DNA of 32,000 bases from Halalkalibacterium halodurans (GTDB lineage Bacteria > Bacillota > Bacilli > Bacillales > Bacillaceae_D): assembly GCF_004376175.1 (NCBI RefSeq), contig NZ_SNUY01000024.1, forward strand, positions 18,583-50,582, in the 5' to 3' direction. The notes beneath the pieces are model-generated. The model did no database searches. It saw only the letters and a list, made by a program, of their open reading frames with translations, and was not told the DNA's origin. The position numbers and the translations under genes are program-made. Every line of letters starts with the position of its first letter. The first letter of the stretch is position 1. This document shows positions 4,847 through 28,962 of this stretch, piece after piece.

Positions 4847-6589
4847 GTGTACGGAGTATTACTTGCAGCTTTAGGCATGCTCGTGTTTGCGTTAGGGTAT
4901 CGGTATTATTCAAAGTTTATCGCCGAACGAATTTATCGCCTTGACCCTAATTTTGTAACGCCTGCCCATCAATTTAAGGATGGAAAAGACTTTGTCCCAA
5001 CCAACAAGTTTGTTCTGTGGGGACATCATTTTACCTCAGTTGCTGGTGCCGCACCGATCGTAGGGCCAGCAATTGCGATTTATTGGGGCTGGCTACCAGC
5101 AATTCTCTGGGTCACCCTTGGGACGGTGTTTGCAGCAGGTGTTCATGACTTTGGGGCACTTGTTTTATCGGTTCGAAACAAAGGTCAATCGGTCGGAACG
5201 TTAGCCGATAAGCTCATCGGTCGTCAGGCCAAGCTGTTATTTTTATTTATTATTTTGATCCTTGTTCTTATGGTTAACGCTGTGTTTGCCTGGGTCATTT
5301 CCAACTTGTTTATCTCAAATCCTTCAGCGGTACTGTCCGTTTTTATTCAAATTCCATTAGCAGTGTGGATTGGCTACCATGTATACAAACGACAAGGAGG
5401 AATGCTCATCCCGTCCCTTGTGGCGCTGGCGGTGATGTACGTGTCAGCCATTGTGGCAAGCCGAGTACCTGCTTTACAAATTGACCTTGTCCGCTATTTT
5501 GGTGGGGAGGAAAACATCGTAGCTTTTGGTCTTGATGGGGTCGCTATGTCGTTCTTCGTCTGGATTATCGTCCTTATGATCTACGTCTACATCGCCTCCA
5601 CATTGCCGGTTTGGAAGCTGTTACAGCCACGGGATTACATTAACTCCCATCAGCTCGTCGTCGGTTTGCTTATTTTATACTTAGGTTTGCTGTTTTCTAA
5701 CCCAAAGGTTACAGCACCTGCTGTCAACGGTTCACCTGATACGTCATGGTTCCCGTTGCTGTTTATTACCATTGCGTGTGGTGCGATCTCCGGGTTCCAC
5801 GGTCTCGTTTCTTCTGGGACGACATCGAAACAGCTGAATAAGGAAACAGACGCGAGGTTTGTTGGGTATTTAGGAGCAATTGGTGAGGGGCTACTCGCTC
5901 TCATCGTAATCGTCGCAGTTGCTACGTTCTTTGCATCGCCTCAAGCATTCTCCGAGGTGTACTCAAGCTTTGGTGCAGCAAATCAAGGCGGGCTAGGAAA
6001 CTTCGTTCAAGCCGCAGGTCAGCTTGCGACAGGTCTCCTCATTCCGCAAGATATGGCGGCGACGATCGTGGCTGTGATCATCGTCAGCTTTGCCGCGACC
6101 ACACTGGATACCTCTGTCCGCTTAATGCGATACATTATTGCTGAACTCGGTCAAGAATATAAGGTGCCAGCGTTATCTAAAACTCATGTGGCCACTTCAA
6201 TTGCCGTTGTGTCAAGTGCGGCGCTCGTTCTTTTACCAGAAGGACCAAATGGATTTGGTTCAGGAGGTTACTTGCTTTGGCCACTATTTGGAACGTCAAA
6301 TCAGCTTCTTGCAGGGATTACCTTGCTGCTAATAACGATTTGGCTGAAACGTCAAGGGCGTAACTATTTACCGACTTTGATCCCGATGGTTTTCGTTTTG
6401 TTTATGACGCTGTATGCTATGTTACAACAAGTCCTCTTTCAATGGTCACCATTTGGTGGTACGGGGACGAACATTCTCTTATTTACGCTAGGTTCAATTA
6501 TTCTCGTATTTGCGTTCTGGATTGTCATTGTCGCCATCTCTGAAATTATGAAATCCAAGCCAAGGGATGATTCAAGAAAAAGTGCGTAA
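4847..6589 (+). CDS. cstA: Carbon starvation protein CstA family peptide/pyruvate transporter
   Basis: A polytopic membrane protein of about 580 aa with CstA-typical N-terminal sequence (YRYYSKFIAERI, HHFTSVAGAGPIVGP-like HHFTSVAGAAPIVGPAIA). I prefer the GTG start at 4847 because it lies 8 nt after GAAAGGGG. Confidence 0.9.
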   Translation: MYGVLLAALGMLVFALGYRYYSKFIAERIYRLDPNFVTPAHQFKDGKDFVPTNKFVLWGHHFTSVAGAAPIVGPAIAIYWGWLPAILWVTLGTVFAAGVHDFGALVLSVRNKGQSVGTLADKLIGRQAKLLFLFIILILVLMVNAVFAWVISNLFISNPSAVLSVFIQIPLAVWIGYHVYKRQGGMLIPSLVALAVMYVSAIVASRVPALQIDLVRYFGGEENIVAFGLDGVAMSFFVWIIVLMIYVYIASTLPVWKLLQPRDYINSHQLVVGLLILYLGLLFSNPKVTAPAVNGSPDTSWFPLLFITIACGAISGFHGLVSSGTTSKQLNKETDARFVGYLGAIGEGLLALIVIVAVATFFASPQAFSEVYSSFGAANQGGLGNFVQAAGQLATGLLIPQDMAATIVAVIIVSFAATTLDTSVRLMRYIIAELGQEYKVPALSKTHVATSIAVVSSAALVLLPEGPNGFGSGGYLLWPLFGTSNQLLAGITLLLITIWLKRQGRNYLPTLIPMVFVLFMTLYAMLQQVLFQWSPFGGTGTNILLFTLGSIILVFAFWIVIVAISEIMKSKPRDDSRKSA

Positions 6590-6601
6590 AGAACGAAAAG
6601 G

Positions 6602-6630
6602 AAGGGGTTAGTCTCACTAATCCCTTTCAT
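6602..6630 (+). terminator. Possible partial terminator/attenuator after cstA
   Basis: AAGGGGTTAGT / ACTAATCCCTT forms an 11-bp stem with one G-U pair and a 3-nt loop, followed by TTTCATT, a weak U-tract. Confidence 0.4.
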
Positions 6631-6661
6631 TCATGTAGATGTAAAGGAAGGAGGGGAACCA

Positions 6662-6925
6662 ATGGAGCAAAAGCTATCGTTAAAACGATTGTTCGAACTT
6701 TATGATGAAATGTTACGTGTTCCCCATCGAGCAGAAATTCATCGGGAGCTCCAAGATGAGGATGATTTGTTTTTGCTTCTCGTCTATTCAGAGATGCTAG
6801 GCGTGCCAAATCCAGCCTTTTATTATACGCTTGAACTTTACCCGTACATCATTGAAACGTTTCACGAATGGCATTTGCGGATGGGGATGGATAAGTCACC
6901 ATTGCAAGGGATTCGTTGTTGCTAA
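6662..6925 (+). CDS. Small CstA-associated protein ending in Arg-Cys-Cys-stop (resembles what I recall PGAP calls cory-CC-star protein)
   Basis: An 87-aa ORF with a strong SD (GGAAGGAGGGG) 6 nt before the ATG. It ends ...LQGIRCC*. It sits directly downstream of cstA, as the YbdD/YjiX small proteins do, and I recall those also ending in RCC. Confidence 0.7.
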   Translation: MEQKLSLKRLFELYDEMLRVPHRAEIHRELQDEDDLFLLLVYSEMLGVPNPAFYYTLELYPYIIETFHEWHLRMGMDKSPLQGIRCC

Positions 6926-6949
6926 CTTAACGGAGAAGGATGGGTGCAA

Positions 6950-7891
6950 ATGTCACATTTGTATACAAAGCACATTTATTTCATCGGTGGAAAGGGAGGC
7001 GTGGGTAAGTCAACGTCTGCTGCATCATTTGCTTGGCGTTGCGCTGAACGTGGAGAGAAAACGCTTCTCATTTCCACCGATCCAGCGCACAATTTAGGAG
7101 ATCTATTTCATACAGAAATCGGCGCAAAGCATAAAAAAATAACGGATAATCTGTTTGCGACCGAAATTGATCCAGAGCAAGAAACAAGGAGATACATTCA
7201 ATCGGTTAAGGATAATTTAAGGGGCATGGTGAAATCGACGATGCTGGACGAAGTAAATCGGCAGATCGATGCCGCCGCCGCGACACCCGGTGCAGATGAA
7301 GCAGCGATGTTTAATGCGATTTCATCCATTGTATTAGACGAACAAGGAACGTACGACAAGCTCGTTTTTGATACAGCGCCGACTGGACACACGATCCGTC
7401 TATTGACTCTTCCGGAAATGATGGGCGTCTGGATCGATGGGATGGTGAAAAAACGGAAAAAAATAAACGAAAACTATTCCAATTTGTTAAACGATGGGGA
7501 ACCAGTAGATGATCCGATCTACGATACTCTGCAGCAGCGGAAAGAGCGATTTGCTGCCGTTCGAAACGTATTACTCGATCCGAAAAAGACGGGGTTCATG
7601 TTTGTTTTAATACCAGAGCGGCTGCCGATATTGGAAACGGAAAAAGCTGTCAAGCTCCTAGCAAAACACGATTTACATGTGGAGACATTAATCATTAATA
7701 AAATTTTGCCAGATGTAGCAGATGGCCAATTTTTAGAAAAAAGAAGACAAATAGAACAGCGATACTTGCAGCAAATTCACAACACTTTTCGCAAGCAAAC
7801 GTTACTGCGCGTTCCGTTGTTTCCAGAAGACATCGGTTCAATTGAAGCGCTCTACCATTTTGCTCGTTATTTAGAACCGACAGCCTCATAA
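6950..7891 (+). CDS. ArsA/Get3(TRC40)-family P-loop ATPase, single-domain
   Basis: Deviant Walker A GGKGGVGKST, STDPAHNL, and DTAPTGHTIRLL, the signature ArsA/Get3 switch II motif. The ATG at 6950 lies 9 nt after GGAGAAGGA; the alternative is GTG 6944. Confidence 0.85.
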   Translation: MSHLYTKHIYFIGGKGGVGKSTSAASFAWRCAERGEKTLLISTDPAHNLGDLFHTEIGAKHKKITDNLFATEIDPEQETRRYIQSVKDNLRGMVKSTMLDEVNRQIDAAAATPGADEAAMFNAISSIVLDEQGTYDKLVFDTAPTGHTIRLLTLPEMMGVWIDGMVKKRKKINENYSNLLNDGEPVDDPIYDTLQQRKERFAAVRNVLLDPKKTGFMFVLIPERLPILETEKAVKLLAKHDLHVETLIINKILPDVADGQFLEKRRQIEQRYLQQIHNTFRKQTLLRVPLFPEDIGSIEALYHFARYLEPTAS

Positions 7892-7897
7892 AATTTT

Positions 7898-8473
7898 TTG
7901 AAACTTCTTACGGTGTCTAACGTGACCGAATCAAGCTTGGACGCCGGCATCGTGGATCGGGTGTTTATGAGAGTCGCCGATGGATTTTTAGCGTTTCCTG
8001 ATACGATTGTAGCCATTGTCTTAAGTGGTTTGCTTGGGCCTGGCATCGGCAATCTCGTCCTTGCGATCGTCATGGTGAAATGGGTCAGTTATGCCCGTCT
8101 TGTACGAAGTACGGTCCTGACTGAGGTGGAAAAAGACTATGTTGCGATCGCACGGATAAACGGTTTATCGTCAAGCAAAATTATGCGTAAACACTTATTT
8201 CCTCATATCGTTGGACATGTATTAGTAATGGCTACTTTGGACCTTGGAAAAATCATTTTGCTGATCTCAGCTTTGTCTTACATCGGGCTTGGCGCCCAAC
8301 CGCCGACTCCTGAGTGGGGGGCGATGCTCAATGATTCTCGTCCTTATTTTCAGTCGATGCCGCAACTAATGATCTATCCTGGTCTCGCGATCGTCATTGT
8401 TGTGTTGCTTACCAATATGCTGGGGGATTACTTACGAGATTATTTTGATGTGAAGAAGGAGGTGGGACAATGA
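7898..8473 (+). pseudogene. 5'-truncated OppC/DppC/NikC-type ABC permease remnant
   Basis: Only the C-terminal ~175 aa of a binding-protein-dependent permease are present (DRVFMRVADGFLAFP..., EAA-like region VAIARINGLSSSKIMRKHLFPH, C-terminal GDYLRDYFD). The N-terminal ~90-100 aa are missing. There is no SD, and the only start is a TTG 4 nt after the arsA-like stop. Confidence 0.7.
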
Positions 8474-9270
8474 TTTTATCTGTTGAGCAAGTGACAATTA
8501 GAAGTAAAGAAAACATCATCGTCGATCAAGTCTCCCTCCAAATTCGAGCTGGACAGTGGTTTGCTCTCGTCGGCCAAAGTGGGAGTGGGAAAAGTTTGTT
8601 GTCCCAAGCCATTGGACAAATGTTAGCCCCTAATTTGCAAGTGGAGGGAAAGATCTCATTCAAAGGACGAGACTTGTTTACTTTATCACGAAAAGAGATG
8701 CGAACCCTTCGTGGATCTAAGATCTCTTACATTTTCCAAGACTATCAAGGCTCTTTTACACCATTTCGTACAATTGCCCAACATTTTGAAGAATACCAAA
8801 AAAACCATACAACCCGTTCGGCTAAGGAACGAAAAGGCGAAGCCATGCGTGCCCTTCAATCGGTCGGTCTTGAGGAAATGCTCTATCATCGATATCCGTT
8901 TCAGCTAAGTGGCGGCCAGCTTCAACGGGTTTCGATTGCGCTCGCTCTCTTGCTTTCACCTGATTTACTAATTGCGGATGAGGCGACAACCGCTCTTGAT
9001 AGTGTTTCTGGCCATCGGATCTTGGAACTGCTTGCGAGACGACAAAGAGAAACAGGCTGTGCCATTCTTTTTATAACCCATGATTGGCGCCATGTGAGAC
9101 GTTATGCGGACCACATTGCTGTTATGAAAGAAGGGACAATAGTAGAATCAGGTAGGAAACATCGTGTACTTGATCATCCGAAAGATGATTATACAAAGCA
9201 ACTGATCCAAGCAGCGCCTACGCTAGGACATGGATTGCCCTCAGGTTTGCCGGAGGTGGGGGAGGGGTGA
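8470..9270 (+). CDS. ABC transporter ATP-binding protein (OppD/DppD/NikD-like)
   Basis: Walker A GQSGSGKS, signature LSGGQLQR, Walker B LLIADEATTALD and H-loop ITHD. The start overlaps the upstream stop as ATGA. Confidence 0.85.
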   Translation: MILSVEQVTIRSKENIIVDQVSLQIRAGQWFALVGQSGSGKSLLSQAIGQMLAPNLQVEGKISFKGRDLFTLSRKEMRTLRGSKISYIFQDYQGSFTPFRTIAQHFEEYQKNHTTRSAKERKGEAMRALQSVGLEEMLYHRYPFQLSGGQLQRVSIALALLLSPDLLIADEATTALDSVSGHRILELLARRQRETGCAILFITHDWRHVRRYADHIAVMKEGTIVESGRKHRVLDHPKDDYTKQLIQAAPTLGHGLPSGLPEVGEG

Positions 9271-10028
9271 CGTTACTATCTGTCGACCATTTAGTGAAAT
9301 CATACGGGACAGGAAAAGTAGCCATTTCCGATGTTTCCTTTGATGTAAATAAAGGGGAATGTCTCGGCCTTGTTGGGGAGAGTGGTTGCGGAAAAAGCAC
9401 TCTTGCCCGTTGTTTACTACGAATCGAATCGATTGATCGTGGTTCGATTACGTTTAAACATCAATCAATTGAGCGCCTTAAAGAGCGGCGATTACGCCCG
9501 TTTCGCAAAGATCTACAGGCTGTATTTCAAAACCCAACGGCGGCCTTGAATCCGAAGCTTAAAGTGAAAGATTCCCTCCTTGACCCATACGACCAATACA
9601 AACAGGGGCTCAAGCTTCGTCATTTTAGCTACACGTCAAAAAACGCTTTTGTTAGACAGCTCCTAGAGGCGGTAGAACTTCCAAGCTCTTTAGCAGAGCG
9701 TTATCCTCATGAGCTGAGCGGGGGACAACGTCAGCGGGTTACGATCGCTCGAGCGATAAGTATAGAGCCAGCCCTGATCATTTTAGATGAACTTACAGCG
9801 AGCCTTGATGTGATTTCACAAGGGGCGATTCTCCGCTTGCTCTCAGACCTGCGGAACACGCTAAATGTAGCGTACTTGTTTATTTCCCATGACCTTGCCG
9901 CTGTGGAACAAATGAGTCAACGAATCATCGTAATGAAAGATGGCACGTTTGTCGATGAATTTCAGAGTGACCACTTATTTTCAGAAGGACGTCATCCGTA
10001 TACGAAGGAATTGATCTCCATTTTTTAA
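9267..10028 (+). CDS. ABC transporter ATP-binding protein (OppF/DppF/NikE-like)
   Basis: Walker A GESGCGKS, signature LSGGQRQR, Walker B LIILDELTASLD and H-loop ISHD. The GTG start overlaps the upstream stop as GTGA. Confidence 0.85.
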   Translation: MTLLSVDHLVKSYGTGKVAISDVSFDVNKGECLGLVGESGCGKSTLARCLLRIESIDRGSITFKHQSIERLKERRLRPFRKDLQAVFQNPTAALNPKLKVKDSLLDPYDQYKQGLKLRHFSYTSKNAFVRQLLEAVELPSSLAERYPHELSGGQRQRVTIARAISIEPALIILDELTASLDVISQGAILRLLSDLRNTLNVAYLFISHDLAAVEQMSQRIIVMKDGTFVDEFQSDHLFSEGRHPYTKELISIF

Positions 10029-10125
10029 TCAATCATTCAAATGAGGAGCCAGCTTTAACCATAAGTCAAACGGATGGAAAAGGACTTATGACCTGAAAAC
10101 ACGAATAGCAGTGGGCATTTATCCC

Positions 10126-10163
10126 AACGACCACCTACTTAAGCAGGTGGTCGTTTCATTTTT
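10126..10163 (+). terminator. Rho-independent terminator of the ABC remnant operon
   Basis: AACGACCACCT / AGGTGGTCGTT forms a perfect 11-bp stem with an 8-nt loop, followed by TCATTTTT. Confidence 0.8.
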
Positions 10164-10230
10164 GGGTAGCTTTCATGGACAAGTTTTCAGTATAATACGT
10201 AAGAAGAGATTTTCGAAAAGGGGATAGTGT

Positions 10231-11223
10231 ATGCAACAATCCCGACAACGATTGTGGATGTTAGTGGCAACTTTAATTGTTGTAGCCATCATCTTAATGA
10301 TTCTTTGCTATCAATCAGTAAAAATTGTGTTAAGTCCAGATACTGAACCAACTGACCGAGTCATCATGAGTATTTTTACGTCAGATAAACTGGTGGATCA
10401 GAGTTGGGGCAGCTTAGCCTATTTGGCTCAGCTCCATGTGGAGAAGAAGTTTCCGGTCGATATTGAACTTTATAGTGAAGTCGATACAATAGAGAAAATG
10501 GAAGAATCCTTGCATGCCTCCATAGATCGAAAAACGGAACTGATTATTGGGCACGGGCGAGAGTTTTCTGACTTTTTTACAAAAGTTGCACCAAGCTATC
10601 CAACTGTTCGATTTGTTACGATTCATGGAAGCGCAACTTATGAGAATCAAACGGTCTATACGTTTGAAAAGGGGAAAATTGAACTGATTGCAGCCCTTGC
10701 CGCTACGATGAAATCGAAAACGAGAAAAGTGGCACTCATCGATGCTTATGATGGACGAGAAGATGAGCCTTATTTTGAACGAGGCCTTGAAAAATATGCT
10801 AATGATATCGAGTTTTTTTATTACGTTGTAAACAGCCGCCATGATGGAAAGCAGGCGAAAGCAGTGATGGATAAATTAATAAAAGAAGGAGTTGACGTCG
10901 TCTATTCCCGTGGCAACGCGTTCAACCGAGACGTGATTCATTACGCGAAACAACATGACATCTATGTCATCGGCTTTCTTGATGACCAGTCGTACCTTGG
11001 TGAGGAGCACGTGCTGACAAGTGTATTGAACGATGTTACTCAGGCCTATGTTAAAATTATAGAAGATTATTTTAACGAGGAAGAGCCTTTTCCAAATGGG
11101 ATCGTTATCCTCTCGGGAAAAGACGGTGTTTTTCGCTTGGCGCCTTTCGGGAAGATGTTTACAGAGGAAGAAAAAAAACGTTTACAGGAAGAGTTGGATC
11201 GCTACTATCGTGGTGAATTATAG
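10231..11223 (+). CDS. Membrane-anchored BMP-family (PnrA/Med-like) substrate-binding-fold protein
   Basis: An N-terminal TM/signal anchor (LWMLVATLIVVAIILMILC) followed by a BMP-type periplasmic-binding fold. The C-terminal half (GVDVVYSRGNAFN...YVIGFLDDQSYLGEEHVLTSVLNDVTQAY) resembles my recollection of B. subtilis Med. Confidence 0.7.
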   Translation: MQQSRQRLWMLVATLIVVAIILMILCYQSVKIVLSPDTEPTDRVIMSIFTSDKLVDQSWGSLAYLAQLHVEKKFPVDIELYSEVDTIEKMEESLHASIDRKTELIIGHGREFSDFFTKVAPSYPTVRFVTIHGSATYENQTVYTFEKGKIELIAALAATMKSKTRKVALIDAYDGREDEPYFERGLEKYANDIEFFYYVVNSRHDGKQAKAVMDKLIKEGVDVVYSRGNAFNRDVIHYAKQHDIYVIGFLDDQSYLGEEHVLTSVLNDVTQAYVKIIEDYFNEEEPFPNGIVILSGKDGVFRLAPFGKMFTEEEKKRLQEELDRYYRGEL

Positions 11224-11249
11224 ATACATTACAGGCTTGGGGATATTTT

Positions 11250-13052
11250 ATGAGAAATTGGTTCCAGTCTTTGTCATTTCGTAATCGGATTTTAGTTGTG
11301 CTATTGCTCATCACGTTATTGATGAGCAGCTTTTCGCTTGTATTAATAGCTTCGATTAGTGAAGTGAATGATGTAAGCAAAAAAATATCAAATGAAGGTG
11401 TTCCAGAATTGGCGTGGCTTACGAGCTGGCAAGAGGAGCTCGCCGTTAAAACTTTTTTGGTGGAATCGTACTTAAACGAGGAATGGTGTTGTGATCTTGT
11501 CGAGGAATATCAATCCATTCATTCAGATCAGGATGGCAACATCCCAGAGGCTTGGACCAGGCTTCCTTCTTCATTAGAAGAGATTAAAATGAGTATGGAG
11601 CGGCTCGATTTTGAGATGATTAACAACGTTCAAGGGCTGCTTGACTTTGGAGATGAGGAAGGAGCCCGTTCCTATTTACAAACTCAATTTTTGCCGCGAA
11701 TCGAAGAAGTCGAACTAGAATTAAGTGAAGCGAGAAGTAACGTTCTTTCGACATTAAATGATCATTCTTCTAGCTTAACGACGATCATTCATCAATCGCT
11801 ATGGCTTCTGTTTATCGTGACGGTGATGGTCATCGGATTCTCCATTGTTGCTGCCTATCGCATTAGTGGAAAATTAACAAATCCTCTTGAACGAATGGTC
11901 GACCAAGTGGATGCGATTTCGAAAGGTCAATATGGACTCTATCTTACATCAACTCCTCAGTTTGAGATGCAGCAAATGACGGTGGCCATAAATGAAATGT
12001 CCAAGCGATTAAAATCGTCGTTCGATACATTATTTAACGAAAAAAAATACCGTGAGCAAATTTTAAATTCGTTGCCAATCGGAATTATTACATTCGATCA
12101 TCAAAGCAATGAACTCTCATTGAATACGGCTGCAAGACTTTGGGTGCAAGCATCTGAGTCTGATATTCTCTTGCGACAGGTTGAAGAAAATCAGGCGTTT
12201 TGGCAACTGTTTTGGTCGAATAGTATGTGTCAAAACGTGAAGGTGTCGTTCTCGAATTCAGAGGGGACTCATCAAGTGCTCGTCTCGAAAACAGAATTGT
12301 TTAATGATCAACAGATCGTCATTGGACAAATCTTTTATTTTATTGATATTACAGAAGTGGAAGAAATGGCTAAGCGCATGCACCAATCGGAGAAGCTTGC
12401 ACTTGTAGGTGAAATGGCTGCTGGAGCTGCCCATGAAATTCGGAATCCACTTGCCGTGATCCACGGGTTTATTAGCTTAATGAAACAGACGATGCCTGAT
12501 TCAAATGAAAACAAAAGCTATATGCCACTGCTATTGCAAGAAATTGATCGGATCAATGGTATCATTGACGAGATGCTTTTATTAGCAAAGCCAGGGGCAC
12601 CAATCTTAAAGCGTGGAGATATAAAAGAAATGGCGGAGGAGTTAATTCCGCTGATTCGCCATTCATATGGACACGATGATCTCAAGATCGAAATGAAATT
12701 AGATTCAGCTGTGGTCATGATGGATCGGAAGCAAATGAAACAAGTGTTACACAATTTAATTAAAAACAGCATTGATGCGGTGGGGGGCACAGGGACGGTT
12801 ACTCTTTATTCGAAAGTGGATGAGAGTGGTTGGTATCACCTCTTTATCCGTGATACGGGAAAAGGGATTCCTTCACACTTACAAGAGACGATCTTTGAAC
12901 CGTTCTCAAGTTCAAAAGAAAGTGGCACCGGACTAGGCCTTACGATTGTTCAGCGAATCATTGAAAATCATCACGGATCGATCCAGTTGGTGGACTCCTC
13001 AGAAAATGGTACGACCTTTCAAATCTCGTTGCCGTTGGCGGATGATGCTTAA
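11250..13052 (+). CDS. Orphan sensor histidine kinase (2 TM + extracytoplasmic domain, HAMP, PAS, HisKA, HATPase_c); sporulation-kinase-like H-box
   Basis: TM1 is LVVLLLITLLMSSFSLVLIASI and TM2 is LWLLFIVTVMVIGFSIVAAY. The H-box is AAGAAHEIRNPLAVIHGF, the N-box LHNLIKNSIDA and the G-boxes RDTGKGIP / GTGLGLTIV. There is no response regulator gene next to it. Confidence 0.9.
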   Translation: MRNWFQSLSFRNRILVVLLLITLLMSSFSLVLIASISEVNDVSKKISNEGVPELAWLTSWQEELAVKTFLVESYLNEEWCCDLVEEYQSIHSDQDGNIPEAWTRLPSSLEEIKMSMERLDFEMINNVQGLLDFGDEEGARSYLQTQFLPRIEEVELELSEARSNVLSTLNDHSSSLTTIIHQSLWLLFIVTVMVIGFSIVAAYRISGKLTNPLERMVDQVDAISKGQYGLYLTSTPQFEMQQMTVAINEMSKRLKSSFDTLFNEKKYREQILNSLPIGIITFDHQSNELSLNTAARLWVQASESDILLRQVEENQAFWQLFWSNSMCQNVKVSFSNSEGTHQVLVSKTELFNDQQIVIGQIFYFIDITEVEEMAKRMHQSEKLALVGEMAAGAAHEIRNPLAVIHGFISLMKQTMPDSNENKSYMPLLLQEIDRINGIIDEMLLLAKPGAPILKRGDIKEMAEELIPLIRHSYGHDDLKIEMKLDSAVVMMDRKQMKQVLHNLIKNSIDAVGGTGTVTLYSKVDESGWYHLFIRDTGKGIPSHLQETIFEPFSSSKESGTGLGLTIVQRIIENHHGSIQLVDSSENGTTFQISLPLADDA

Positions 13053-13109
13053 GCTGAATGAAAGACGGCTTCAGAAAAACATGAACAGAAAAGATTGTCA
13101 CACGATACA

Positions 13110-13146
13110 ACGAAGAGGGAGTGGTCATTCCCTCTTCGTTTACTTT
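13110..13146 (+). terminator. Rho-independent terminator of the kinase gene
   Basis: ACGAAGAGGGA / TCCCTCTTCGT forms a perfect 11-bp stem with an 8-nt loop, followed by TTACTTTG. Confidence 0.75.
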
Positions 13147-13294
13147 GTCTAAGTTTGAGTCATAGGGATAATGGTCTCTTTTATGGCATTGAACTAGTTA
13201 TCACTACAATCACAAATAAATGAATTTCCTCCTTACCCAATCTTTTTTCCTTCCCCATTTCATAGACTCAAGCGTACTCGGGTTATCCTCCAAA

Positions 13295-13334
13295 TAAAAA
13301 AGTAGCACAAACCATCACGTTGGTATGTACTACT
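13295..13334 (-). terminator. Rho-independent terminator of the LysM-CAP gene (minus strand)
   Basis: On the minus-strand RNA, AGUAGUACA ... UGUGCUACU forms a 9-bp stem with one G-U pair, followed by UUUUUU (the A-run at 13295-13300 on the + strand). Confidence 0.65.
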
Positions 13335-13351
13335 CAATGTTTATATGCTAC

Positions 13352-13984
13352 TTAACGCCCGATAAACATTTGCGTCCAGTAATGACCGTAAGAGCCTCCA
13401 CGTGCATAACCGACACCGATTTCGGTGTAATTAGATGAAAGAATGTTCTGACGATGCCCCGAACTATTCATCCATGCTTGGAATACAGCTTGTGGTGTGG
13501 ATTGGCCAGCAGCAATGTTTTCACCTGATGAACGATAGCTAATGCCGAAATTGCGAATCATTTGATGTGGGCTACCGTATGTTGGGGATGTATGGCTAAA
13601 ATAGTTGCGATCTCTCATATCCTCTGATTTAATGCGAGCTACCCGCGCCAACTCCCAATTTGATTTTAATGGTTTTAACCCATATTTTGCGCGCTCTTGG
13701 TTTACGAGTCTTACAACCTCCTCTTCAAAATTTAGATGAGCGCTTTTGGCTGGGATGTTTAGCTTTTGCCCTGGGTAAATCACATTTGGGTTCGAAACTT
13801 GAGGGTTCGCTTGAATGATTTCGGATACGCCGACCTGATAGCGAGCAGCGATCTTCCACATCGTATCACCTGAGACAACAGTATGTGTAGTGGAAGCCTC
13901 AGCCTTTTCCCCAATACCAAAGACACAGACAACAGACAACAATAAAATGATAAAAAATTGTGTTAAGTATCTCATGGTTTTCAT
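13352..13984 (-). CDS. Secreted LysM + CAP/SCP (YkwD-like) domain protein
   Basis: Signal peptide (LTQFFIILLLSVVCVFGIGEKAEA), a LysM motif (HTVVSGDTMWKIAARYQVGVSEIIQANP...IYPGQKLNIP) and a CAP/SCP domain (VNQERAKYGLKPL ... SSGHRQNIL ... GVGY). No clear SD precedes the ATG. Confidence 0.85.
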   Translation of the reverse strand: MKTMRYLTQFFIILLLSVVCVFGIGEKAEASTTHTVVSGDTMWKIAARYQVGVSEIIQANPQVSNPNVIYPGQKLNIPAKSAHLNFEEEVVRLVNQERAKYGLKPLKSNWELARVARIKSEDMRDRNYFSHTSPTYGSPHQMIRNFGISYRSSGENIAAGQSTPQAVFQAWMNSSGHRQNILSSNYTEIGVGYARGGSYGHYWTQMFIGR

Positions 13985-14158
13985 CTTAATAGGTTACGTT
14001 TGAAAAGTATAGCGGGAATCGGTGGGCAAGATGGGCATTGCTACGCTGAAAGCAAGACATGGGAAGTGCTTGAAATAAAAGTAGCAAATTTTACGAAAAT
14101 ATTACTATAGGGTGACCGGTGTAATAAAAAAATTGATATTTTGTAATAAAGTGAGCGA

Positions 14159-14923
14159 TTATTTTCTAGCAACCCATATGGTCCAACGGTCGGTTTCTTC
14201 AATGAATTCTTGGATTTGTTGATCGAGATAGTCAATTAACTTGTTCAATTCGAGGTCTGATAATGCGTGGAGGATCGAGCACCCAGTTCTAGCTCGGATC
14301 TCTTGCAGGAAATGTTGCTTGGATGATGTCTGTCTCGTTTCCAAAAACGTTTCTACCCGTTCGACCTCATACCCTGAGCGAATAATTGTGGAAGAAAGCA
14401 TTTGAATTGTTGGCCGTCGTTTTCTTTCAATCTCTTGCAAGTGAGGAAATAGGTTGTAGTAATAGCCACGGATATGGGATGGACTTCCTTGCAAAAAGCA
14501 GTCCTCCGACGTGCGATCTTGTACGATCAACTGCCCATCATTTTCTAACAAGCGAAAGGCTTCAGAAAGGAAAGGTTCAACTTCATTCAATTGATGGATC
14601 AGAGCTCGACAATAAACGAGGGAGTAGTGACCAGATGCAAGTCCAGTAGCCTCAGCTTGCCCGTGGTGAAAAGGGAGAGTTGGGTGCAATTGTTTTGCCA
14701 CCTCAAGTATAGGAAGGGAACTGTCTACACCTGTTACCGTATCAAACCCTTATGAAGTAAGAGCCCTTGTATAAATACCTCTGCCACAGCCGATGTCCAC
14801 GGCATGTCCTGTTGGAGAATCAAGAAGGATAGACATCTTCTTGATCCATGAAACGTCAGCTCGTCTTGTTGCGTAACTATATTGGTAACGCTTGTCGTGA
14901 AAGTCAATATGATAACCGAACAC
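14159..14923 (-). pseudogene. Class I SAM-dependent methyltransferase interrupted by a single in-frame TAA
   Basis: Minus-strand translation reads ...ILLDSPTGHAVDIGCGRGIYTRALTS*GFDTVTGVDSSLPILEVAKQLHP... SAM-binding motif I (VDIGCGRG) is upstream of the stop. The stop is + strand 14750-14752 (tta). The rest of the fold (ORF 14159-14701) is downstream in the same frame. Confidence 0.75.
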
Positions 14924-15176
14924 CTCTTTTACCTATTATATACAGTCAATTCGGTAAAAAAGCTTAGAGTTTTCAAATCACAAGTGAAAACGGGCACAAA
15001 TCATATAAAAAAAAGAGAACGAACAGAAGCTAATAGGATCTTAAGAAGCAAAGAAGGTGGAAAATCTATGAAAAAATGTTGTTTGAAAAATTCTTTTATT
15101 TTAAGATAGAACGAGTAGATTTTTGTTGAAAAATGCAATTGAAATAAAGAAAACTTTTATATTATTGGAGGGACTT

Positions 15177-16235
15177 ATGGGAATTATTAAAGCTGCGGTA
15201 AGTGCAGTAAAAGGTGGATTGGCGGATCAGTGGCTCGAAGTTATAGAACCGCAGGGAATGAGCGATAGTACAGTGATGTCTGTTGGCGTAAAAGTGCGGC
15301 CAAAAGATCGGCGTAATCAAAATTTCAAAGGAACCGAAGCTACTGTTTCAAACGGTTCGATCATTCATGTGTACCCGAATCAATTTATGATGTTAGTCGA
15401 CGGGGGAGAAATCGTGGACTATACGGCAGAGGAAGGCTATTATGAGGTGGACTTTTTTGGAATGCCGTCCATGTTTAATGGGGAGTTTGGCGATTCACTA
15501 AAAGAGACGTTTAATCGAGTGAAGTTTGGCGGGGTTCCATCGAAAACACAGAAGGTTTACTTTATTAATCTACAAGAAATTAAAGGTATTAAATTTGGGA
15601 CTCGTCATCCAATTAACTATTTCGATAACTTTTACAATGCTGAATTATTTTTAAGAACTCACGGAACGTATTCAATCAAGATTGTTGACCCAATAAAATT
15701 TTTTATGGAGGCAATTCCACGTAATCAGTCGGTCGTTGATATTAAACAAATTAACGAACAATATCTCTCAGAGTTTATGAATGCCTTGCAGGCGGCCATC
15801 AACCAAATGTCAAGTGACGGGACACGCATCTCGTTTGTCACGTCAAAGGGAATGGAGCTAGCGAAATATATGGCGACCGTTTTAGATGAAGATTGGCGTC
15901 GGATGCGCGGGATGCAAGTGGAATCTGTCGGAATTGCCAGTATTTCATATGATGAACAATCGCAAAACTTAATCAACATGAGAAATAAAGGGGCGATGCT
16001 ACAAGATCCTACCGTGCGAGAAGGGTATGTTCAAGGTTCAGTTGCACGAGGATTAGAGGCTGCTGGTTCGAATGAAAGTGGTGCGATGCAAGGCTTTATG
16101 GGGGTCGGCATGGGGATGCAAGGAAGTGGTGGCTTTATGGGCGCCGTTTCAGATGCTAATCGTCAGCAAATGCAGCAGGCTCAACAGTCGGGCGGACAAC
16201 AGCAGGCAGCTCAAGATTCCAATAAATGGAAATGA
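15177..16235 (+). CDS. SPFH/band-7-superfamily protein of the COG4260 (YdjI-like, virion-core-protein-like) type, ending at an in-frame TGA before its Zn-ribbon tail
   Basis: The ATG at 15177 lies 7 nt after GGAGGG. The N-terminus is MGIIKAAVSAVKGGLADQWLEVIEP... followed by a Gly/Met/Gln-rich linker (GFMGVGMGMQGSGGFMG...QQMQQAQQSGGQQQ). This family normally carries a C-terminal Zn-ribbon. Confidence 0.8.
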   Translation: MGIIKAAVSAVKGGLADQWLEVIEPQGMSDSTVMSVGVKVRPKDRRNQNFKGTEATVSNGSIIHVYPNQFMMLVDGGEIVDYTAEEGYYEVDFFGMPSMFNGEFGDSLKETFNRVKFGGVPSKTQKVYFINLQEIKGIKFGTRHPINYFDNFYNAELFLRTHGTYSIKIVDPIKFFMEAIPRNQSVVDIKQINEQYLSEFMNALQAAINQMSSDGTRISFVTSKGMELAKYMATVLDEDWRRMRGMQVESVGIASISYDEQSQNLINMRNKGAMLQDPTVREGYVQGSVARGLEAAGSNESGAMQGFMGVGMGMQGSGGFMGAVSDANRQQMQQAQQSGGQQQAAQDSNKWK

Positions 16236-16247
16236 CGTTGCGGTCAG

Positions 16248-16478
16248 ATGAACCATGGTCGCTTTTGCACCGAATGTGGAACAGCAAAGCCGAGTCCAAA
16301 TCAGGAAGGCTGGACGTGCACGTGTGGACAACATAACACTGGGAATTTTTGTATGGAATGTGGCTTGAAAAAGCCTGAAGAAATGAAAGCTGTGACATGC
16401 AATAATTGTGGGTTTACGCCTCCACCGAATGTGGCTATGAAATTTTGTCCAGAATGCGGCCAATCGTTTAATGATTAG
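16248..16478 (+). CDS. Triple Zn-ribbon peptide, probably the detached C-terminal domain of the preceding SPFH protein
   Basis: It is in the same frame as 15177-16235 and separated only by TGA plus 4 codons. There is no SD before ATG 16248. The repeats are FCTECG, CTCG..FCMECG and CNNCG..FCPECG. Confidence 0.5.
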   Translation: MNHGRFCTECGTAKPSPNQEGWTCTCGQHNTGNFCMECGLKKPEEMKAVTCNNCGFTPPPNVAMKFCPECGQSFND

Positions 16479-16517
16479 CGGTTTGATGATTTTAATCATG
16501 AATAGGAGGGGCGTACT

Positions 16518-17594
16518 TTGGGGGTCATTGTCTATAAATGTTTAAATTGTGGTGGGCCACTGGAATTCAAGGCAGAGTCTCAAAAGAGGGAGTGTGAATA
16601 CTGTTTAAGCGATTTTAGTGCAGAGGACATGAAGCGCTTTGAGGATGAGCAAAAGTCACAAGCAGTGGCAGAAATGGATACAGAAACATTCGAAAAAGAG
16701 AAGGGACAAGAGATTGAATTTGTAGAAAAATCGAAGAGTTATAGCTGCAAAAGCTGCGGGGCGGAAATTGTAACGGAGGAAACGACGGCTGCAACTTTTT
16801 GTTACTACTGTCATAATCCGACGATCATTCCCGGACAATTATCAGGAGACTATCGCCCAGCACAAGTGATTCCTTTTCAAATTACGAAAGAACAAGCGGA
16901 AGAATCGTTCGTTCAATGGTGTAACAAAAAACCCCTTTTGTCCAAATACTTTACATTGCCTTCGCAACTCGAGAAATTATCGGGAATTTATGTCCCTTTT
17001 TGGCTCTTTGATTGCGATACATTAGGGAGCATTGATGCAGAAGCAACGAAATCACGATCGTATACTCGAGGAAATATGCGTTACACAGAAACAAAATATT
17101 ATCGAGTGATCAGAGAAGGGAAAGCAGATTATCGAAAAGTCCCTGCTGATGGTTCAACAAAAATGGATGAGAAGCTCATGGGTGGACTTGAACCTTATGA
17201 TTATGCAGATTTAAAGGATTTTTCCATGTCTTATTTATCGGGCTATCTAGCGGAAAAGTATGATCTCAATCAAAATGATGTGTACGGTCGAATATCGGAT
17301 GTCATCCGGCAGCATACAAGCTCTCTGCTTCGGCAAACGATCAAGGGGTATGGGAGTGTTTCGATCAAAGATTCATCGTTTAATATTAAGAAAGTTGATG
17401 CGACCTATGTATTGCTCCCTGTCTGGATGTTCACATACCAATACAAAGGCAAGACGTACGTCTTTGCGATGAACGGGCAAACAGGAAAAATTTCCAGAAA
17501 CCTCCCAATTAGTATGAAACGAGCTGCTGCATGGTTCGGGATTGTTACCGGAGCGTCGTTTCTCACGATGTTAATTGGAGGATGGGTATTATGA
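16518..17594 (+). CDS. Zn-ribbon membrane protein (YdjG-like), C-terminal TM anchor
   Basis: TTG start 8 nt after AGGAGGGG. Two CxxC...CxxC ribbons (CLNCGG...CEYC and CKSCGA...CYYCHN) and a C-terminal TM segment (AAWFGIVTGASFLTMLIGGWVL). Confidence 0.75.
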   Translation: MGVIVYKCLNCGGPLEFKAESQKRECEYCLSDFSAEDMKRFEDEQKSQAVAEMDTETFEKEKGQEIEFVEKSKSYSCKSCGAEIVTEETTAATFCYYCHNPTIIPGQLSGDYRPAQVIPFQITKEQAEESFVQWCNKKPLLSKYFTLPSQLEKLSGIYVPFWLFDCDTLGSIDAEATKSRSYTRGNMRYTETKYYRVIREGKADYRKVPADGSTKMDEKLMGGLEPYDYADLKDFSMSYLSGYLAEKYDLNQNDVYGRISDVIRQHTSSLLRQTIKGYGSVSIKDSSFNIKKVDATYVLLPVWMFTYQYKGKTYVFAMNGQTGKISRNLPISMKRAAAWFGIVTGASFLTMLIGGWVL

Positions 17595-18406
17595 GTAATG
17601 TGGTCATGAAGCTATTTTATCGTATGGGTATCGCCATTATGTTACTTATTACATTCTCGAATCCGGTAAACAGTGCCACGCCTCATGTTTATGATCATGC
17701 TAAGCTCTTTACTGATTCAGAACGGGATGATTTGGAGCAGCAAGCAACAACACTTTCAGAACAGGTTCAATTGGATATTGCCGTAGTTACGATCGATGAC
17801 AATGCTGGGAAAACAGCTGAGGAAAATGCAATGGACTTTTTTGACGAGCATGATTTAGGTTACGAGGATGGTGAAGACAGTGTCCTTCTTCTCATTGACA
17901 TGGACGGTCGGGAAGTCTTTATATTGACGAGCGGGCTCGGGAGCAAATATTTAACAGATCAACGACTGGACTTAGTTTTGGATGACATCTATCCTTATTT
18001 ATCTGAACAGAATTACACCTCTGCGGTGGAGTTTTTCTTAACAGGGGTCAACGAATACGTTCAACAAGGAATACCTGCGGGCCAACACACAGTAGTAGTA
18101 AGCGAAAAAACCGAAACGAGCTTAGCCTATAAATTATTAGTATACCTTGGTATTTCGAGCGTAATCGGGTTGCTGGTTGTCGGGGGAATGGCAACGAAAA
18201 ATCGAAGCACGTCTAGTATAAGTAAGGGAACTTATTTGTTAAAAGATTCGTTTCGGTTGATTCGACACGAGGATCGCCACTACAATACGAAAGTGACAAA
18301 GCGGAGAATTCAGACGCAGTCCTCTAGCGGGTCGCGTCCAGGACGATCGACGGTCCGAAGCTCTAGTAGTGGCCGATCATATGGTGGCCGTGGACGAAAG
18401 TTTTAA
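17591..18406 (+). CDS. TPM-domain membrane protein (YdjH/YgcG-like)
   Basis: ATG 17591 overlaps the upstream stop (ATGA). It has a signal/TM segment, a TPM-domain opening motif (HVYDHAKLFTDSERDDLEQ), a second TM segment (LLVYLGISSVIGLLVVGG) and a Ser/Gly/Arg-rich tail. Confidence 0.8.
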   Translation: MSNVVMKLFYRMGIAIMLLITFSNPVNSATPHVYDHAKLFTDSERDDLEQQATTLSEQVQLDIAVVTIDDNAGKTAEENAMDFFDEHDLGYEDGEDSVLLLIDMDGREVFILTSGLGSKYLTDQRLDLVLDDIYPYLSEQNYTSAVEFFLTGVNEYVQQGIPAGQHTVVVSEKTETSLAYKLLVYLGISSVIGLLVVGGMATKNRSTSSISKGTYLLKDSFRLIRHEDRHYNTKVTKRRIQTQSSSGSRPGRSTVRSSSSGRSYGGRGRKF

Positions 18407-18425
18407 TAGAATGATTTTAGGTTTC

Positions 18426-18459
18426 AAAACCTTGAAGGCTTAAGTTTTCAAGGTTTTTT
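18426..18459. terminator. Bidirectional-looking Rho-independent terminator
   Basis: AAAACCTTGAA / TTCAAGGTTTT forms a perfect 11-bp stem with a 10-nt loop. The T-run continues on the + strand, and an A-run precedes the stem. Confidence 0.75.
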
Positions 18460-18671
18460 CGTGTGCCACTTTTGTATCAAAATGATCGTGATAGATTTCT
18501 GTTTTTCGTGCTTGTTGTCTTGCTTCGTAAACTTTTAGAAATCATGTGTTTCGGTTCAGGTATTTTTCTTTTGATGGCTTCGATGATTGGCGGATGTTGT
18601 ATTCGTAAAATGCAGGATGTCTCAACCATTAGTCAAAACCAGCTAAAAGTTTAATAAAAAAGATTCACGCT

Positions 18672-18699
18672 TTGTTAACAGGGAATAAATTGGTAAAAT
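18672..18699 (+). promoter_or_regulatory. Candidate SigA promoter for the HD-domain gene
   Basis: TTGTTA, a 16-nt spacer, then TAAAAT, with a TGg extended -10 element. Confidence 0.4.
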
Positions 18700-18750
18700 G
18701 AAGGAGTGGTACGAGTGAATGGCGAATGATTAATGATGAGGAGGAGTAAA

Positions 18751-19728
18751 ATGAAATTAGTAGATTCCATTTATGGTACGTATACGGTAGAACCTGTCAT
18801 TTCGGAGCTGATCGATTCAGCGCCAGTACAACGATTAAAAGGTATTCATCAGGGTGGAGCGTGCTATTTAGTAAAACCATCATGGAATGTGACTCGCTTT
18901 GAGCATTCGATTGGGGTCATGCTCCTTATTCGGAAGTTAGGAGGCTCTCTTGAAGAGCAAATCGCCGGGTTACTCCATGATGTCTCTCATACCGCTTTTT
19001 CCCATGTGATTGATTATGTATTAGCGGAAGAGGAGGAAGACTATCACGAGCAAATTTACGAGCAAGTGATACGGGCTTCCGAGATTCCACACATTTTAGA
19101 CAAGTACGGCTTTGACTTAGAACGAATCGTCCTTAATCATTCGTGCTGGACTTTACTAGAGCAACCCTCACCGTCTCTATGTGCTGATCGAATCGATTAT
19201 ACACTTCGGGATTTATACACTTATGGTCATATTAACAAACAAGAAGTGGATGATTTTATCGCTAATTTGATTGTTGTAGATGGAATCATTAGCACGTCTT
19301 CTGTTGCAGGGGCTGAGTGGTTTGTAAGAGCATACTACAAGGAAGTGATTGATTTCTTTTTAGATCCATTGAACGTATACGGTTCGTCTGTTTTAACATC
19401 AGTGCTAAAGAGTGCCGTTGAACGAAAAGCACTAGGCCTAGATGACTTTTTAAAAACAGACGAAGAACTCATGGAGCAATTACAACGATTGAACGATGAC
19501 TCGATCCAAAAGCAGCTTGCTACCCTCCATCCACACGTTAACGTTCGCGAAAATGAAAATCACTACCATATTCATAAAACGAACAAGCTCCGGCTAATTG
19601 ATCCTCATGTGTATCTAGATGGAACATTTCAACGAATATCCTCACTCTCTAAACAGGTGAAAAAGTGGAATGAAGAAGCTCAGAGACGAGCGGATCGAGG
19701 GGCTTATGTGGAGGTTTTGTCCTCGTAA
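18751..19728 (+). CDS. HD-domain metal-dependent phosphohydrolase
   Basis: HD motifs are FEHSIGV and LLHDVSHTAFSH, and a downstream D is present (CADRIDYTLRD). ATG 18751 lies 7 nt after AGGAGGAG. Confidence 0.85.
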   Translation: MKLVDSIYGTYTVEPVISELIDSAPVQRLKGIHQGGACYLVKPSWNVTRFEHSIGVMLLIRKLGGSLEEQIAGLLHDVSHTAFSHVIDYVLAEEEEDYHEQIYEQVIRASEIPHILDKYGFDLERIVLNHSCWTLLEQPSPSLCADRIDYTLRDLYTYGHINKQEVDDFIANLIVVDGIISTSSVAGAEWFVRAYYKEVIDFFLDPLNVYGSSVLTSVLKSAVERKALGLDDFLKTDEELMEQLQRLNDDSIQKQLATLHPHVNVRENENHYHIHKTNKLRLIDPHVYLDGTFQRISSLSKQVKKWNEEAQRRADRGAYVEVLSS

Positions 19729-19803
19729 GGTCATAGTTTAAACTTATTGAAGGGTATAATAAATGATAGCAGGTAATTAAAGGGAAAGAAGTAGGGTGAT
19801 GAG

Positions 19804-20964
19804 ATGATGGCCATTATACAGTTGAATGAATCTCACTATGACGAAGTTCTTAATCTATCAAGCTATGCTTTTCAATATCCATTGACCCAAAGCGAGAGAC
19901 AAGAACGTGCGATTATTTTAAAGGAACAAGACATTTACGGTATTTTTCATGATGAACAATTGGCAGCAAAGCTACATATTTATCCATTCCAAATATGGTT
20001 TAATGGTCAGAAAATAGAGATGGGTGGTATTGCTGGTGTCGCAACGTATCCTGAATATAGGCGTCAAGGTTTTGTTAAAGATTTGCTGCTTCACTCATTA
20101 CGAGAGATGAGGCGCAATGGTCAATCCGTTTCGATCCTCCACCCTTTTTCAATCCCATTTTACCGAAAGTATGGCTGGGAGCTTTTTTCTTATTATGTTT
20201 CGGTTGACTTTTCAGTTAAGGAGCTAGTTCTTATGGAGGAGCCCTCAGGATATATGAGGCGACGTACCGCTAAGGCTACGCTTGCAGAGCTTCGTACGAT
20301 TTACGATGAATATGCAAAAACGTATTCAGGGATACTTGATCGCAAGGACTCTTGGTGGCAACAGAAGGTCGTAAACGATTGTGAAATAGCCATTTATTAT
20401 ACTAAAGAAGGAAGCCCTACTGGGTATATTCTTTATCAAGTGAAAGACGCAAAGATGATCATAGATGAGTTTGTAGCCCTCCAACATGAGGCTCGGCTAG
20501 GATTATGGAATTTTATTTGTCAACACGATTCAATGGTACAAACGATTACCATTACGTTACAAGAACATGATCCACTGCTATATACTTGCTTGCACGTCAA
20601 AGAGCGCATTGAACAAAAGCCCTTCGGCATGGTGAGGATTGTGGATGTTCAGCGTTTTTTAACACAATGTCCATTTTTATTGAAAGAGAATGACGAACCG
20701 TTGTTTTTGCATGTTTTGGATAAACAAGCACCATGGAATCGAGGGGTATTTAAATTGACGGAGGGCACTTGTACGAAAGTGGATGAATTTGCAGGGAACC
20801 GAGCGGTAGTCATTGAAATAAATCATTTAAGTGCGCTTTTATTCGGATACAAAACAGTGATTGATCTTTTAGCAATTGAAGCTGTAAACGGCCCAGAGGG
20901 GGAAATTGAACGGCTTGCGCGGATGATTCCAAGAAGGCGTCCGTTACTTTTTGACTTCTTCTAA
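19804..20964 (+). CDS. GNAT N-acetyltransferase of the Eis-like (GNAT + SCP2-like C-terminal domain) type
   Basis: Acetyl-CoA binding motif GIAGVATYPEYRRQGF. The ~386-aa length and the FGMVRIVD... C-terminal domain are typical of Eis-family enzymes. Confidence 0.8.
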   Translation: MMAIIQLNESHYDEVLNLSSYAFQYPLTQSERQERAIILKEQDIYGIFHDEQLAAKLHIYPFQIWFNGQKIEMGGIAGVATYPEYRRQGFVKDLLLHSLREMRRNGQSVSILHPFSIPFYRKYGWELFSYYVSVDFSVKELVLMEEPSGYMRRRTAKATLAELRTIYDEYAKTYSGILDRKDSWWQQKVVNDCEIAIYYTKEGSPTGYILYQVKDAKMIIDEFVALQHEARLGLWNFICQHDSMVQTITITLQEHDPLLYTCLHVKERIEQKPFGMVRIVDVQRFLTQCPFLLKENDEPLFLHVLDKQAPWNRGVFKLTEGTCTKVDEFAGNRAVVIEINHLSALLFGYKTVIDLLAIEAVNGPEGEIERLARMIPRRRPLLFDFF

Positions 20965-28902: not shown

Positions 28903-28962
28903 AGAAACAAAATGTAGAAGCACTTTTTTGAAAGCGCTTCATAAAAAGGTGAGGTGATAAAG

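Follow-up and report, generated by a model that had tools for sequence, protein, structure and literature searches.

In Bacillus subtilis, the protein YdjI, also designated SamI, is built from an SPFH domain, a linker of low complexity and a zinc finger at the C-terminus, and it has the membrane proteins YdjG and YdjH as its partners (PMC8581546; bioRxiv 10.64898/2026.02.06.704340). Loss of SamI in this organism leads to a chronic-stress phenotype, which is suppressed when samH or all of samGHI is deleted together with it (bioRxiv 10.64898/2026.02.06.704340). Here we describe an allele of a YdjI/SamI-type gene, BH1805 in strain C-125, in a stretch of 32,000 nt of Halalkalibacterium halodurans DNA (assembly GCF_004376175.1, contig NZ_SNUY01000024.1, positions 18,583 to 50,582 of the forward strand). 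This stretch is referred to as the window, and all positions given below are positions within it. In the window the SPFH gene is interrupted by an in-frame TGA at codon 353, where other strains carry the codon for a zinc-ligand cysteine. With a probability of roughly two in three, we consider this stop to be a strain-private nonsense allele that arose in one H. halodurans lineage by the change of TGC to TGA at Cys353.

The intact H. halodurans protein resembles YdjI, encoded in the pspA-ydjGHI (samGHI) operon of B. subtilis, in that a PF13421 domain is followed by a G/M/Q-rich linker and by C-terminal zinc ribbons. Next to it lie a gene for a zinc-ribbon membrane protein and a TPM-domain gene, which may correspond to ydjG and ydjH as judged from their described features. 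The two loci differ in that the order of the genes is I-G-H in H. halodurans and in that pspA is missing upstream; a divergently oriented methyltransferase gene occupies this place instead, and none of the H. halodurans loci has a PspA gene in its flanks. Furthermore, the H. halodurans protein contains three ribbons as compared to a single motif in YdjI, and in the strain analyzed here these ribbons are cut off by the stop. A second group with which the locus can be compared are the bacterial selenoprotein genes, characterized by UGA together with a SECIS (selenocysteine insertion sequence) element, SelB and tRNA-Sec, since they likewise show an in-frame UGA opposite a cysteine of their homologues.

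The truncated gene and its stop codon

The following features of the gene are needed for the analysis:

15177..16235, forward strand: truncated SPFH gene, 352 amino acids (aa), product 100% identical to WP_243854938.1 (P0004); Band_7_1 SPFH domain, G/M/Q-rich low-complexity linker and premature TGA at the end
16233..16235, forward strand: premature stop TGA at codon 353, the position of the first zinc ligand of ribbon 1; the other H. halodurans samples all have TGC (Cys) here
16236..16478, forward strand: in-frame remnant with the rest of ribbon 1 (C355, C364, C367), ribbon 2 (C381-C395, 16317-16361) and ribbon 3 (C408-C427, 16398-16457)

The SPFH open reading frame (ORF) starts with the ATG at 15177 and ends at the TGA 16233-16235, from where its frame continues up to the normal stop codon TAG at 16476-16478. 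Residues 51-268 of the protein are matched by PF13421 (Band_7_1) with 51.7 bits (cut-off 24) and E = 1.2e-13, and the SPFH domain of this protein is without an N-terminal membrane anchor. Close homologues are named 'putative virion core protein (lumpy skin disease virus)' in the source databases, which is the name of COG4260. Translation of the frame beyond the stop yields ...AAQDSNKWK, the stop and then RCGQMNHGRFCTECG..EGWTCTCGQHNTGNFCMECG..VTCNNCGF..KFCPECG, that is, three zinc-ribbon-like units. The first of these (RCGQMNHGRFCTECG) can be aligned position by position with the second repeat (EGWTCTCGQHNTGNFCMECG), and the stop thereby comes to lie on the first Cys of unit 1. Zinc-ribbon matches in Pfam stay below threshold (DZR with 20.2 bits, Zn_Ribbon_1 on three stretches); the G/M/Q-rich linker and the three CxC/CxxC...CxxC units of the intact alleles are conserved across 26 homologues.

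A preliminary description of this DNA had proposed that the stop falls on the first Cys of a CxC...CxxC ribbon. This is borne out both by the repeat alignment and by the corresponding Cys column, which is at least 90% conserved in an alignment of 27 sequences. The end of the SPFH ORF at this TGA, followed in the same frame by a 76-aa zinc-ribbon ORF without a Shine-Dalgarno sequence, was likewise confirmed on the sequence. The 76-aa ORF (16248-16478) shares the frame of the SPFH ORF, since 16248-15177 = 1071 = 3 x 357, and no GGAGG-like Shine-Dalgarno sequence is present in the 15 nt preceding its ATG. The exact 76-aa sequence was not found in a collection of 15 billion proteins and is called as a gene in no assembly. 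Within the ribbon-coding remnant (16236..16478) there is no strain-private change.

Intact alleles in other strains and species

For comparison, 28 H. halodurans loci were available, 21 of which, from 14 distinct samples, cover position 16235. Related genomes comprise 80 genomes of other species among the matches listed, and all counts for related genomes, loci and homologues given below refer to these matches. The best database match to the readthrough protein is a 433-aa 'SPFH domain-containing protein' of H. halodurans (P0001) with 99% identity over the whole length. BH1805 of strain C-125 (P0124) belongs to the same 90% cluster as P0001 and is an intact allele of the same gene; P0001, P0121 and P0124 are all H. 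halodurans proteins of 433 aa with Cys353. The truncated 352-aa form was found on one contig of 53,883 bp only, and exact-protein look-ups of the 352-aa, 358-aa and 210-aa products revealed no second copy of the stop allele. In the closest sample, ERR1034890, contig breaks leave 9.4-17.5 kb uncovered.

Position 16235 is C, as part of TGC, in 21 of 21 conspecific loci and A in the window only, as expected from the earlier proposal that TGY was converted to TGA by one base change. The comparison of orthologous codons that had been suggested at the same time gave a uniform picture: a W-x-C-x-C knuckle is present in 69 of the 80 related genomes, with TGC as the codon in 50, TGT in 19 and TGA in none. 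Of the related loci, 78 extend as far as a stop codon, and the first one in frame lies at codon 398-452 in each of them.

The same SPFH gene has been disrupted a second time within the species. In GCA_001274915.2 and GCA_005671335.1 (= CP040441.1), an independent 2-bp TT insertion after nt 297 causes a frameshift at codon 99 and splits the gene into ORFs of 108 aa and 319 aa (WP_233443892.1; L107 and L108, 2657-3960). Thus, loss of this SPFH gene does occur in H. halodurans, and the disruption in another strain suggests that the gene is dispensable under some conditions. Apart from this 108-aa/319-aa lineage, all other sampled strains have intact 433-aa alleles with Cys353, in agreement with the original expectation that a recent nonsense mutation, i.e. 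simple decay, of a COG4260-type SPFH-zinc-ribbon protein is the more likely explanation of the stop.

The question of selenocysteine decoding

Shortly behind the stop, the following element is found:

16240..16262, forward strand: weak hairpin GCGGUCA-N9-UGGUCGC of 7 bp, including 2 G-U pairs, with a 9-nt loop, starting 4 nt after the UGA

The hairpin exists as it had been described, and together with a stop exactly opposite a conserved Cys its position and its GGUC sequence would favor the view that the UGA is decoded as selenocysteine (Sec) or Cys with the help of a SECIS-like structure; the protein would then be full-length, and Sec would serve in it as a zinc ligand. The folding analysis does not distinguish this hairpin from the rest of the gene. 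On its own it has a free energy of -4.4 kcal/mol, and at 25% of the codon positions of the gene the downstream 40 nt reach the same stability or more. Starting at the UGA, 60 nt fold no better than dinucleotide shuffles (z = +0.23), and the hairpin is not part of their minimum free energy (MFE) structure. In the stretch 16000-16600, a permissive search of Rfam (E <= 10) yielded no SECIS family; at gathering thresholds there was no Rfam match and no tRNA in the whole window, and no sel gene is found among its annotated ORFs. Between 16236 and 16586 the window shows no difference from its three closest Cys-coding relatives. The hairpin region is therefore identical in strains with a cysteine codon and cannot have co-evolved with the UGA.

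Bacillus halodurans C-125 is listed as SelD-, SelA-, SelB-, YbbB-, YqeB- and YqeC- (Peng et al. 2016, Table S1, PMC5029168). Replacement of Cys by Sec has been described for redox-active residues (PMC1794560), whereas Cys353 is a structural zinc ligand and not a redox-active catalytic Cys. In contrast to bacterial selenoprotein genes, the locus has neither a conserved UGA nor a SECIS element, and no Sec machinery is reported for the species. Moreover, other plainly destructive private mutations are located in the same short stretch. Since no orthologue has TGA, the hairpin is ordinary and also present in Cys strains, a SECIS match is lacking and C-125 is reported to be without SelD, SelA and SelB, decoding of the UGA as Sec is effectively excluded, and the recoding considered in the preliminary description can be set aside on orthologue codons, folding, Rfam and literature. 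In this case the signature of a stop on a metal-ligand Cys is a selenoprotein false positive.

Private changes around the stop

Changes were counted as private when the window differs from all comparators; its closest relatives over 11.2-18.4 kb are L090, L092, L093 and L106, which are 99.6-99.7% identical to the window over this range and carry the intact P0121 allele. The private substitutions are distributed as follows:

5606-11205: 0
11206-13196: 2
13197-17510: 13, plus a private 1-bp deletion
17511-19929: 1
16216..16235, forward strand: of the private substitutions, five that crowd into 20 bp (C>A, G>A, G>T, C>A, C>A), corresponding to A347D, E349N (two bases), Q350K and the change of C353 to the stop

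The density of private substitutions amounts to 0.3% in 13197-17510 and to about 0.03% in the flanks, a difference of about tenfold. Of the 13 substitutions in this segment, 10 lead from G/C to A/T and 3 exchange A and T, while none is directed towards G or C. Outside the methyltransferase gene all private changes in coding sequence of 13197-17510 are non-synonymous; a private H101Y is found in a LysM-CAP gene. When 15 substitutions were placed randomly in 7.2 kb, at least five within 20 bp were obtained in none of 200,000 simulations.

The dense private substitutions may go back to localised error-prone repair, to an unsampled donor or to consensus errors, and the five changes in 20 bp could be the record of one localised error-prone repair event. 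No donor for gene conversion and no other templated source of the five-substitution cluster was found: allowing up to 3 mismatches, the window contains no second copy of the 21-mer at the cluster, and no related genome of the set contains a matching patch of DNA. The five changes lengthen a local inverted repeat by one pair only. A genome-wide AT-biased mutator was rejected, as with closer relatives the bias is seen at about 12-17.5 kb only, being absent in 1-5.6 kb.

Origin and meaning of the stop

The locus has the properties of a nonsense allele: a premature stop as compared to full-length orthologues, which is private to one lineage, and a downstream ATG (16248) that is not preceded by a Shine-Dalgarno sequence. 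With ordinary strain-specific pseudogenes and nonsense alleles it shares the single-base, lineage-private stop, intact orthologues elsewhere, further hits in neighbouring genes and an independent frameshift of the same SPFH gene in another strain; it is unlike them in that the stop resides within a cluster of five A/T-ward changes in 20 bp, which is atypical of independent point mutations. Ordinary termination by release factor 2 at the TGA would result in a product of 352 aa consisting of the SPFH domain and the linker and lacking the zinc ribbons. As judged from B. subtilis, at most a few per cent of the ribosomes would read through UGA-C with a near-cognate tRNA, probably that for Trp, and the 76-aa downstream ORF would represent a remnant and not a new gene. 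The local burst of mostly damaging private substitutions would at the same time have inactivated the methyltransferase gene and altered two conserved residues of the YdjG-like partner. Because damaging private changes are found in these two genes as well, it appears that in this lineage the module is undergoing decay or is being shut off, and local gene decay is the best reading of the stop and the surrounding changes. On this reading, the gene in the window is an ordinary allele, truncated in this one strain, and belongs to a known gene family.

Several observations weigh against this interpretation. The cluster that ends at the stop has P < 5e-6 by chance, and the local excess of private changes exceeds what relaxed selection alone would give. 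The stop shows no independent sign of age, since no private change has accumulated downstream of it. The stop allele is known from one assembly only, and two metagenome pattern scans provided no second copy of either allele. In addition, the pattern of exclusively A/T-ward changes or A/T swaps also fits DNA damage or consensus errors at low coverage. The true codon might accordingly be TGC, with the A at 16235 and the neighbouring private changes being consensus errors from low-coverage or damaged DNA. All 13 substitutions in 13197-17510 have the direction of deamination or oxidation artefacts, they are tightly clustered (four substitutions and the 1-bp deletion fall into 340 bp of the methyltransferase gene, compared with none in the 5.6 kb to the left), and outside the methyltransferase gene their consistently non-synonymous nature, two stops included, resembles unselected noise. 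The odd cluster at the stop, without any change towards G or C, makes a sequencing or assembly error somewhat more plausible. On the other hand, the assembly shows only 1 mismatch in 2,419 bp against ERR1034890 elsewhere in the window and no private change in 5606-11205, and its unusual deletion junction at 7919/7945 recurs in three other samples. It contains one private indel in 13 kb, which argues against an assembly with homopolymer errors, and the same gene is naturally and independently disrupted in another strain, which was sequenced twice. We therefore regard an artefact as unlikely, though as an explanation to be taken seriously, and infer that the stop is a real mutation.

If the base is taken as real, the question arises whether the arrangement has a function. 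The gene could have undergone fission, so that the SPFH part and a 76-aa zinc-ribbon peptide with its own initiation both function, or the stop could be leaky and permit enough full-length protein for an effectively wild-type or regulated state. UGA is leaky in B. subtilis, where PMC7918605 quotes for catA86-TGA a readthrough of 6% in a wild-type (prfB+) strain, the stop in the window is followed by C, and the downstream ribbons are still intact; reinitiation at the ATG 16248, 12 nt past the stop, is conceivable. By analogy, full-length protein in which a residue other than Cys takes the place of the first ligand of ribbon 1 might form in small amounts, as UGA is leaky in Bacillus and the stop precedes C. 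Such a readthrough product would, though, carry a non-Cys residue at a zinc ligand, and the 76-aa product, for which no ribosome-binding site is apparent and which is absent from the protein collection, would be without the first knuckle of ribbon 1. Conservation of the stop among relatives, the mark of programmed readthrough, was not found in the related genomes or in the 14 conspecific samples; the stop occurs in this strain only, and nothing thus indicates a selected arrangement. Fission, which had been among the readings offered before, and a functionally leaky stop are both very improbable on these grounds. It is also improbable, if less so, that the stop was not a random hit and forms a step in the shut-down, under selection, of the SamGHI-like envelope-stress module. 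The inactivation of the same SPFH gene in another H. halodurans lineage by the 2-bp insertion could be seen in this light, as could W24R and G327R in the partner gene; with the suppression of the samI phenotype in B. subtilis as a precedent, the combination could reflect a loss that was later compensated.

When regarded as a nonsense allele, the 352-aa WP_243854938.1 should be annotated as a pseudogene or truncated form of the BH1805-type protein of 433 aa, which has little importance beyond annotation. If the base is real, the strain would be a natural mutant that is devoid of only the zinc-ribbon tail, of minor value for work on SPFH proteins of the YdjI/SamI type.

Neighbouring genes

The SPFH gene is flanked by the following genes:

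14159..14923, reverse strand: divergent neighbour, S-adenosylmethionine (SAM) methyltransferase gene; inactivated in this strain only, 250-251 aa and intact in all other strains
16518..17594, forward strand: downstream partner gene, 358 aa, with CxxC zinc-ribbon motifs at the N-terminus and a hydrophobic helix at the C-terminus; YdjG/SamG-like as judged from its architecture and position
17591..18406, forward strand: TPM-domain gene, 271 aa, YdjH/SamH-like; PF04536, E = 1.5e-26; protein identical in other strains

The private changes in the methyltransferase gene comprise a 1-bp deletion at 14908, which destroys the ATG, G44R in SAM motif I (14782), a nonsense change of L53 (14751) and H106Q (14591). 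A description of this gene as frameshifted was rejected, as the 1-bp deletion is located in the start codon and the nonsense codon is separate from it.

A homologue of the 358-aa partner is encoded downstream of the SPFH gene in 66 of the 80 related loci. The two private changes in the partner gene concern conserved positions: W24R lies at a position that is aromatic in 57 of 64 homologues, and G327R replaces a Gly that is present in 63 of 63. In view of the suppression of the samI phenotype in B. subtilis by deletion of samH or samGHI, it may be speculated that W24R and G327R are compensatory.

Other features of the window

As compared to most strains, the window carries a 3.16-kb deletion at 7919-7945, by which a peptide-type ATP-binding cassette (ABC) transporter has lost its substrate-binding gene, permease 1 and, of permease 2, the 5' third. 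A permease fragment of 191 aa and two orphan ATPase genes are left. The junction 7919/7945 contains 25-27 nt of filler, which is the reverse complement of a part of the deleted binding-protein gene. A misassembly at the breakpoint 7945 was rejected, as the junction recurs in three other data sets (L095, L096 and L098). The second ATPase gene has been broken further in L095, into ORFs of 132 aa and 72 aa, and in L096 no ORF is called there.

Strains of the species differ in the spacer 18406-18733 between the TPM-domain gene and an HD-domain gene, which forms a variable island. In some strains it harbors a cassette of 3.4 kb consisting of a response regulator, a histidine kinase and VanY, in others MarR and an MFS transporter; in the window and in L091 it is empty. 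Further to the right, the segment 19930-26476 has 95-97% identity to every other sampled strain, as compared to more than 99.6% to the closest sampled relatives leftwards, and the differences are balanced in direction. It looks like a segment that was imported by recombination or is deeply diverged. Finally, a DDE transposase gene (PF01609) is located at 30259-31710 on the reverse strand, directly after the gene for a 2-oxoacid dehydrogenase E1 component (28954-29976), and may represent an insertion sequence that integrated within or beside the E1 operon.

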